7,140 nucleotides of DNA, taken from Escherichia coli (lineage in GTDB: Bacteria > Pseudomonadota > Gammaproteobacteria > Enterobacterales > Enterobacteriaceae). The notes beneath the pieces are model-generated. The model was given only the letters and a program-made list of their open reading frames with translations. It searched no databases and was not told the origin of the DNA. Each line of letters opens with the position of its first letter. Position 1 is the stretch's first letter. The stretch lies in NCBI RefSeq assembly GCF_003334335.1, contig NZ_QOWQ01000073.1; one strand, written 5' to 3'. This document shows positions 1 through 775 of the stretch, one piece after another. Position numbers and translations under genes: made by a program.

Positions 1-775
1 GGGCTGACGCCGGAAGAGTCAGAGAACAGATACCATTTTTACTGTAAAACCGTGGCCAATATTACTTGACCACTACAAGTTAGCTGAGATGTTAAGCTGC
101 TGGCTGCATACACCTTGCCAAATCTAATCGCTGTTATCTTAACCAATTTCCAGGATACAAGGGGGCGATTACTGAGAATGCTCTCAGACTGTCACTCACC
201 AGATCGGATACGTTTACTGCTCAGGCGGATGCTTAATGCACTCTGTTCAGGTGCATTGCAGGTACGTTTTATGTACGCAGGTTATACGCCAGTTATCAGG
301 GATAACCCTGTGAGTACAACGCAATCTGTTGCTACTGGGTAGACTGGTCTGCTGATCACACTCACAGATTTATTTCACATATATGAACTCATGTGTTTGA
401 GCTCTCTTATATATTTATAATACCAATCAGACAGTCTTATCCCACCAGTGATACCTGTCGCCTGCCCACAGGTCACGGGCTGATGCACCACAACCGCCTT
501 CAAAAACAACTCTGCAATTATCAGAACGCCAGTTTTCCCCTTGTCTCACGAAAGTCCTCCCTCCTTTATCACGTGCGCGTGCGGAAGCATCGTTTCGCAA
601 CAATCACCCGACATACCGGTACGGCTCAGCCACCGCAATCCCCCCGTTTATCTCCTGACGGTTACATTCCCGATTATTTTTTACGTTTTTCCCCGGTTGT
701 TATGCCGGGGAAGGTGGTGCGTTGTTTTCATCACCAACGCCGGTTGAGATTAACAACATCCGGAGGAACATTTTC

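Follow-up and report, generated by a model that had tools for sequence, protein, structure and literature searches.

The locus considered here raises the question of how the alpA gene of a genetic island is kept silent. In P4-like elements, phage-inducible chromosomal islands (PICIs) and CP4-type islands, it is proteins of the AlpA family that turn on excision or even the entire life cycle. We analysed a stretch of 7,140 nucleotides from Escherichia coli (contig NZ_QOWQ01000073.1), hereafter the window, with emphasis on its first 775 bases, which precede an alpA gene of 68 aa (776-982, + strand; annotated in RefSeq copies as helix-turn-helix or AlpA family transcriptional regulator). The original prediction, made from the letters alone, had seen in these bases no convincing gene, a CCCCGG/CCGGGG hairpin near alpA and possibly a promoter/operator, an attachment site or integrase-proximal sequence. 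The explanation that we favour, and to which we give about an even chance, is that positions 685-775 serve as a 5' leader in the mRNA of alpA and would control translation of alpA, the leader's target, through two mutually exclusive folds. If true, such a translational lock would mean that island stability is also controlled post-transcriptionally.

Two predicted folds and two alleles of the putative alpA leader

The flagged hairpin proved to be real and slightly longer than described, with arms at 689-696 (TTCCCCGG) and 705-712 (CCGGGGAA) that are 8 nt long, 100% complementary and 8 nt apart. RNAfold adds the pair U697:G704, which gives the hairpin designated HP1 (689-712, + strand; arms 689-697/704-712, loop 698-703). 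On a rough estimate, about 0.1 perfect 8-bp inverted repeats with a short loop are expected per 775 random bases, so that the repeat is modestly above chance. The perfect CCCCGG/CCGGGG hairpin is, moreover, a minority allele, because fifty-base probes unable to cross-match placed the window allele at 744 places in 693 genomes and the common allele at 6229 places in 3523 genomes; the former makes up about 11% of E. coli copies.

The two alleles were predicted to fold differently. Within the interval 683-795, RNAfold returned HP1 and a second hairpin (713-735) for the window allele, whereas eight other E. coli-type copies gave a single nested hairpin of four helices, both as the minimum free energy (MFE) and as the centroid structure. 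In the nested fold, an anti-Shine-Dalgarno segment (685-692, + strand; GUUUUUCC in the window, GUUUCUCC in the common allele) pairs with the Shine-Dalgarno (SD) region GGAGGAAC at 762-769 (+ strand), in which the SD itself, GGAGG, occupies 762-766 and lies 9 nt before the alpA AUG at 776. Further inwards, 696-702 (GUUGUUA) pairs with 751-757 (UAACAAC) and 704-710 with 738-744, the 3' partners thus falling within 738-757 (+ strand), and a central hairpin, GGUGGUG/CAUCACC (713-719/729-735, + strand), is present in both folds. The nested fold and HP1 are predicted to be mutually exclusive. For the eight other copies the calculated probability of an unpaired SD was 0.00 and that of the anti-SD:SD pairing 0.98-0.99; the nested hairpin of one of these E. 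coli-type leaders, L006, has a dG of -37.2 kcal/mol and a z of -2.81.

The leaders of the window and of L006 differ at exactly two positions, the window having U689 and G709. The change C689U replaces a C:G pair by U:G in the SD helix and, in HP1, gives U:A where there was a C:A mismatch; U709G breaks a U:G pair in the inner helix and gives C:G in HP1 in place of a C:U mismatch. Introduced together in silico, the two changes raise the probability of HP1 from 0.00 to 0.83 and lower that of the anti-SD:SD pairing from 0.98 to 0.10; with either one alone, the probability of HP1 stays at or below 0.08 and the nested fold remains dominant. In the inner helix, E. coli sub-types (alignment A4) show one-sided changes that preserve pairing, G:U to G:C and U:G to U:A. 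Between 25 and 42 °C the predicted unpaired probability of the SD is 0.00 throughout in the common allele and rises from 0.20 to 0.26 in the window allele; an RNA thermometer of the fourU kind thus finds no support in silico, as the predicted SD helix does not melt in this range.

The analysis establishes the complementarity itself, the ensembles as predicted, the counts of both alleles, and conservation with covariation among relatives; that the sequence from 685 onward is transcribed, that these folds form in vivo and that they set the translation of alpA, we infer. In the closed fold, a long nested hairpin would pair the pyrimidine tract at 685-692 with the SD region at 762-769 and bury an upstream AUG (uAUG, 702-704). 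In the open fold, the 5' half would close on itself as HP1 (689-697 : 704-712), showing the uAUG in the loop and leaving the SD weakly paired. Ribosomes starting from the uAUG would traverse the leader and stop at a UGA that overlaps the alpA AUG, by which the translation of alpA would be opened or coupled. Most island copies in E. coli are predicted to be closed, and U689 and G709 would jointly push the window allele to the open fold.

The most likely function would be a translational lock with allele-specific release, and the leader may be an uncatalogued member of a familiar class. As in known SD-sequestering leaders (erm and cat attenuators; ROSE and fourU thermometers), a pyrimidine- or U-rich upstream segment would pair with the SD, a competing upstream hairpin could free it, and a short upstream open reading frame (uORF) traverses the structure to terminate at the regulated gene's start codon; unlike them, the alpA leader has no evident ligand, stalling peptide or temperature response, and the uORF peptide is not conserved. 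In its logic the lock appears to be conserved throughout Enterobacterales, and within E. coli, Nissle 1917 and ST131-type strains included, it appears to be naturally polymorphic; this polymorphism would offer a simple two-nucleotide handle on the lock.

The upstream AUG

The uORF starts from the UAUG in the loop of HP1 and spans 702-779 (+ strand); its 25 codons encode MPGKVVRCFHHQRRLRLTTSGGTFS, and its UGA overlaps the alpA AUG (AUGA). The UAUG is invariant in alignments A1 and A2, and the probability of the uAUG being unpaired is 0.89/0.94 in the window allele versus 0.15/0.62 in the common allele. Across 25 loci the uORF can be as short as 2 codons or can be fused in frame to alpA, and neither its length, nor its frame, nor its peptide is conserved. 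A leader peptide as the conserved feature was rejected on account of this variation in length. We consider it plausible that translation from the uAUG, rather than its peptide, would open the leader or couple it to alpA. It should be added that in some E. coli copies, L003 (4295-4573) and the same region of L005, a 2-nt deletion in the leader puts the uAUG in frame with alpA without a stop, which predicts an AlpA with an N-terminal extension of 24 aa.

Conservation and covariation across alpA leaders

A one-genome-per-species scan returned 80 alpA loci. Their short intergenic alpA leaders fall into several sequence types. Altogether 75 distinct leaders (that of the window and 74 from Enterobacterales and other contigs) folded better than upstream-shuffled controls, with a mean z of -2.9. 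The clearest covariation came from a leader type different from that of the window, represented by 16 loci from many genera, for which RNAalifold gave a three-helix consensus that pairs both AUG and SD. Here 97.4% of the alignment cells are paired, and compensatory changes occur at five pairs. Its covariation score of 0.212 was reached by 0 of 500 shuffles, which score 0.141, and slid controls had at most 69% of cells paired. Among the relatives of the window's own type outside E. coli, the SD hairpin (box 3:box 4) shows compensatory UA/AU (5:4) and GC/UA (7:3) changes; four pairs have double changes, and the score is 0.113 against 0.070 (1 of 500), a nested topology fitting the same relatives equally well. 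Occlusion of the SD is, on these models, well supported for some leader types and only plausible for others.

Blastn against 86 loci, together with conserved motifs, delimits an alpA-linked regulatory module at 646-775 (+ strand). Where alpA stands in a changed context, only about 646-775 (L007) or about 677-744 (L075, L081 and L083) of the window sequence was recognisable with it. Identity over 646-775 among E. coli copies is 88-99%, and 20 loci belonging to other genera share the core motifs without any change. The window's type of leader, found in more than ten genera, consists of an invariant TTTTTTAC, a first CCGG box, the loop TTGNTATG and a second CCGG(AG) box, followed in the 3' part by a variable hairpin and two more CCGG boxes, the final one overlapping the SD. 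The TTTTTTAC motif (677-684, + strand), which marks the module's 5' boundary, does not vary in alignments A1 and A2; across leader types, the tract at this place is T-rich in some and A-rich in others. A metagenome scan with TTAC-N9-CCGGTTGTTATGCC found eight stretches with one true homologue (L100), the pattern being too narrow.

Second copies of the cassette, TTTTTTAC-N-CCGG-N8-10-CCGG, were seen in L003 (6130-6161, - strand), L006 (7141-7172, - strand) and L059 (2520-2552, + strand), about 70-95 nt before the start codons of other genes, and the cassette is hence not exclusive to alpA. The contig of L007 (JAIJJM010000108.1), labelled as a Collinsella sp. metagenome-assembled genome (MAG), carries an alpA that is 96% identical and preceded by a leader of the E. 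coli type; the probable explanation is that enterobacterial DNA was assigned by mistake to an actinobacterial MAG.

The int-alpA RNA motif of Rfam is a candidate cis-regulatory RNA that precedes integrase and alpA genes and, like the leader described here, a conserved structured element 5' of alpA-family genes in Proteobacteria. It has been named as an Rfam match in E. coli genomes (PMC12370729). Searched against Rfam 15, positions 380-830 returned at E<=10 only two chance snoRNA matches, int-alpA not being matched, and 17 related loci had no match in the leader at the gathering threshold. In this the leader differs from the int-alpA motif, and it does not belong to that family as modelled.

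Promoter and terminator signals

The expectation of a promoter/operator stood in part: there is alpA cis-regulatory sequence, limited to the proximal ~100-130 bp, while no sigma-70 promoter (-35 and -10 elements at 16-18 bp spacing) was found on the + strand in 1-1100. The candidate TTTACG-N15-TATGCC was rejected, since its spacing is 15 nt and the T at -7 is missing, and other leader types have no -10-like hexamer. On the evidence, regulation of translation by an mRNA leader is likelier than a promoter/operator.

Two details of the original prediction held. A T-rich run does precede the hairpin (677-682), and the hairpin is not a terminator, with no U-run after the stem on either strand: on the + strand the T-run comes before the stem, and on the - strand an A-run follows it. 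Terminator-like sites numbered 0 in 1-1100 on both strands (0.9 in shuffles). The T-run as the terminator tail of an upstream hairpin was rejected as well, a stable hairpin lying within 3 nt of it in only 6 of 37 distinct contexts; the hairpin nearest to it in the window is 15 nt away and has -5.6 kcal/mol.

Evaluation of alternative explanations

Several results weigh against the leader model. The comparison between alleles rests on partition-function values, and all folding was in silico; the leader of the window allele does not itself exceed its shuffles significantly in stability (z -1.5 to -1.7). Over the 75 leaders the mean accessibility of the SD, 0.38, was not lower in any telling way than the 0.40 obtained with shuffled upstream sequence. 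CCGG cores and loop are the same throughout the window's type, HP1 has almost no covariation, and both topologies suit the alignment, pairing 75% and 83% of its cells. The uAUG itself lacks an SD, and the missing sigma-70 promoter counts on the same side. Finally, the invariance of the loop and the switch of the T/A-tract from T to A between leader types would suit a site acting at the DNA level equally well.

Such a site is the main rival, which we judge unlikely: the T-run, the CCGG-N8-CCGG palindrome and its loop would be bound as DNA by a protein, either as an autoregulatory promoter/operator of AlpA or as a nick- or origin-like site of a Rep-like protein of the Gp2/YfjJ family. It would account for the loop TTGNTATG and the CCGG cores being as invariant as the stem flanks, or more so, and for the tract being T-rich or A-rich by leader type, which suits a property of the duplex better than one of RNA. 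It also sits well with the recurrence of the cassette before other genes in the three loci L003, L006 and L059, and with the finding that AlpA of a PICI activates its own promoter and expression (PMC6092414). Moreover, in 58 of 79 fetched loci a Rep-like gene of ~195 aa on the same strand ends 73-190 nt (mostly 90-135) before alpA; in E. coli islands, however, the gene of the Gp2 family is 1.7 kb from alpA and on the opposite strand. A DNA site leaves unexplained why the 5' segment is complementary to the SD or AUG of alpA, and this complementarity occurs in several unrelated leader types with compensatory changes and with G:U wobbles on the + strand; nor is a -35/-10 pair with acceptable spacing present or conserved. 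In Pseudomonas aeruginosa, the AlpA-binding element of alpB/PA0807, GGGACG, lies between -35 and -10 (PMC7969949, PMC9371919). AlpA-dependent promoters resemble the present locus as regulatory DNA adjoining alpA-controlled operons, with a cassette repeated here before several island genes, but differ in that this locus has no GGGACG, no recognisable promoter and no downstream terminator to bypass. The P. aeruginosa-type element was rejected as a candidate, being absent, and the Pseudomonas AlpA is much longer than the 68-aa AlpA here and not comparable in size. Quite unlikely, in turn, is that the hairpin has no function and is a chance palindrome, CCGG being self-complementary, in the drifting DNA of a decaying island, with the two substitutions as hitch-hikers. 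Insertion sequence (IS) elements and pseudogenes throughout the island, evolution of 181-645 at the synonymous rate, a z of only about -1.5 for the window's leader and a 6-bp core (as originally given) that is expected by chance would all agree with this, and the region would then be ordinary spacer and an IS end. On the other side, 646-775 is more conserved than the spacer and moves with alpA; the CCGG boxes, the loop and the T-run are invariant across more than ten genera; and both substitutions in the leader favour one and the same fold and disfavour the other, the flip needing both.

Two further explanations concern the region as a whole. A long untranslated leader could silence alpA through Rho-dependent termination, with a rut site at 361-680 and the hairpin at its end. 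The + strand of 361-680 is C-rich and G-poor, C/G being 1.7-2.8 per 80-nt window, sustained over ~320 nt, against a median of 1.1 for the whole window (GC skew about -0.33); no translated open reading frame lies in the tract, and an invariant TATAAT at 416-421, within an invariant AT-rich block (411-445), could begin such a transcript. We regard this as highly unlikely, given that the TATAAT lacks a -35 partner and gave no promoter call by prediction, and that L007 retains alpA and the 646-775 module without 181-645, the tract not being required by the module. It should be added that a tract on which Rho loads would be expected to show just such an excess of C over G as 361-680, provided that it is transcribed rightwards. 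That the region is a boundary of the island, i.e. an attachment site or integrase-proximal sequence, was suggested by the frequent adjacency of alpA to integrases in P4-like and CP4-57-type elements (intA-yfjH-alpA in K-12). This we now hold to be extremely improbable, because no tRNA or tmRNA gene was found in the window or in the flanks of up to 9 kb of related loci (four extended copies), and extension upstream met no tyrosine integrase within 9 kb in G1/2 and Nissle 1917, ~4 kb in L003-L006 or ~45 kb in Nissle, the last being all island cargo; besides, the homologous stretch is invariably located between hha and alpA. The alpA of K-12 (CP4-57) was set aside for comparison as uninformative, since its arrangement is different, 43 bp from yfjH.

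Returning to the mRNA leader, we can only tentatively extend it to a bolder picture, which we rate as rather unlikely in full. There would be a family of bistable alpA leader RNAs, of several types and none in Rfam, gating the translation of a regulator of excision or induction through a uAUG displayed in a loop, with two-substitution alleles switched towards 'on'. Alternatively or additionally, TTTTTTAC and the hairpin would be the recognition or nick site of an HUH-like Gp2/YfjJ Rep and mark an origin of replication or transfer next to alpA.

Coding potential and the spacer upstream of the module

The absence of a convincing gene was borne out for 78-775, with no family match and no shared frame; it did not hold for 1-77, the end of an IS3-family transposase gene. 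The + strand has open reading frames at 115-342 (TTG start), 393-779 (GTG) and 541-747 (TTG); neither these three nor those of the minus strand matched NCBIfam or PHROGs at E<0.1 (nothing below E 0.17). In an alignment of 11 copies, no frame is open throughout the ten other E. coli copies, the best shared one (~93-383) being broken in 3 of the 10. The indels are 1, 2, 13, 18 and 22 nt long, not multiples of three, and the aligned copies show no codon-phase bias of substitutions. RefSeq annotation beneath the homologous stretch is 'none' in nearly all listed genomes. A decayed Gp2/YfjJ pseudogene in 78-670 was rejected after tblastn and hidden Markov model (HMM) comparison of ~50 neighbouring proteins of the Gp2 family with six-frame fragments, the best E being 0.45 and inconsistent between copies; a positional match of 14 aa at 605-646 had an E of 5.9. 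A tomB-like minus-strand gene upstream of hha was likewise rejected, with no conserved open reading frame and no family match.

The segment between hha and alpA at 181-645 looks like spacer, for it diverges at a rate like that of synonymous sites of alpA, has non-triplet indels and shows no frame common to the copies. It is 80-89% identical to other copies, and 96.6-98.7% over 410-645 in the two closest (L087 and L088); alpA third-codon positions are 81-90% identical between copies, so that the segment, apart from the AT-rich block at 411-445, drifts at about the neutral rate. Some 3500 of the 5426 complete E. coli genomes contain the spacer stretch, as a rule in two or more places, and it hardly ever carries an annotation. 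Positions 78-645 as a whole are non-coding spacer without demonstrated function. In strain FDAARGOS_1298 (L004), an IS110-family element (ISEc20, 4425-5621) sits inside the hha-alpA spacer between the equivalents of window positions 599 and 607.

The insertion sequence end and lineage-specific sequence at 1-180

An IS3-family insertion sequence has its right end at 1-77 (+ strand). Its transposase coding sequence (CDS), which runs off the window (L001, CDS 7892-9069), is represented at 1-69 by the final codons and the stop, and the terminal inverted repeat ends in ...CACTACA at 77. The element is absent from Nissle 1917, whose homology begins at window position 78. Comparison of junctions between Nissle and G1/2 revealed inverted repeats (TGTAGTGG...) and a target-site duplication of 3 bp, AGT (78-80): the empty site in Nissle reads GCCAGTTAGC, and G1/2 reads ...GCCAGT, IS, AGTTAGC. 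A transposase gene, TG...CA terminal inverted repeats and a 3-bp target duplication were all found, the same as in other IS3-family insertion sequences; there is nothing unusual at 1-77, an ordinary secondary insertion.

Bases 78-180 are specific to the island lineage of the window. Other lineages differ in sequence to the left of position 181 and have there an intact hha with its upstream sequence. Within this part, ~65 bp (102-169, + strand) also occur elsewhere, with 81-96% identity to many F-type and Shigella virulence plasmids (H135-H145). The counterpart in L096 (3001-3068) is a 5' untranslated region (UTR) plus SD, ending in ...GATACAAGGAGGAGAT-ATG of a zinc-ribbon CDS. The segment looks like a portable promoter/5'-UTR piece and is lineage-specific filler adjoining the truncated hha in the window. 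An IS110 end at this place was ruled out, the L096 counterpart being the 5' UTR of a zinc-ribbon gene instead.

Genomic neighbourhood

Bases 1-775 match E. coli chromosomes with 99.7-99.9% identity, over the full length in G1/2 and from base 78 in Nissle 1917, and by these matches the window sits deep within a large pathogenicity island of E. coli. The annotated neighbourhoods share a conserved island core, which comprises in order zinc-ribbon genes (- strand), an 'inovirus Gp2 family' gene (-), a small open reading frame (+), hha (-), ~720 bp without annotation, alpA (+), an open reading frame of ~200 aa (+), yfjI (-), a GTPase gene and Ag43. The hha gene of this core is frequently a pseudogene and is truncated in the window's lineage. 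The 9 kb upstream in G1/2 and Nissle hold IS66 copies, zinc-ribbon genes, the Gp2-family gene and the hha remnant, with the IS3 element in G1/2; the next 35 kb upstream in Nissle are island cargo (iuc/iutA, sat, iha and nan genes).

The ~195-aa gene upstream of alpA in the other loci matches the Pfam families REP_ORF2-G2P and YagK_YfjJ_C. Its products in L009-L086 carry an HxH-like 'HAHIV' motif and a 'YLAKE' tyrosine motif, and the sequence suggests a rolling-circle Rep-like nuclease.

A few observations were made elsewhere. Just 3' of alpA in Serratia marcescens MSU97 (L077, 4423-4498, + strand) lies a match to a group II intron domain (RF00029, 47.4 bits). Between yfjI (-) and the GTPase gene (+) of the window, ~1.27 kb (3270-4543) contain short open reading frames only, and RefSeq copies (L001 and L002) have no feature there. 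Scanned as a whole against Rfam with cmscan at E<=1, the window gave a single match, at 5559-5764 (+ strand) between the GTPase gene and Ag43: a full-length copy of the IS102 RNA (RF00124; 255.5 bits, E 1.4e-49), which we take to be isrC.

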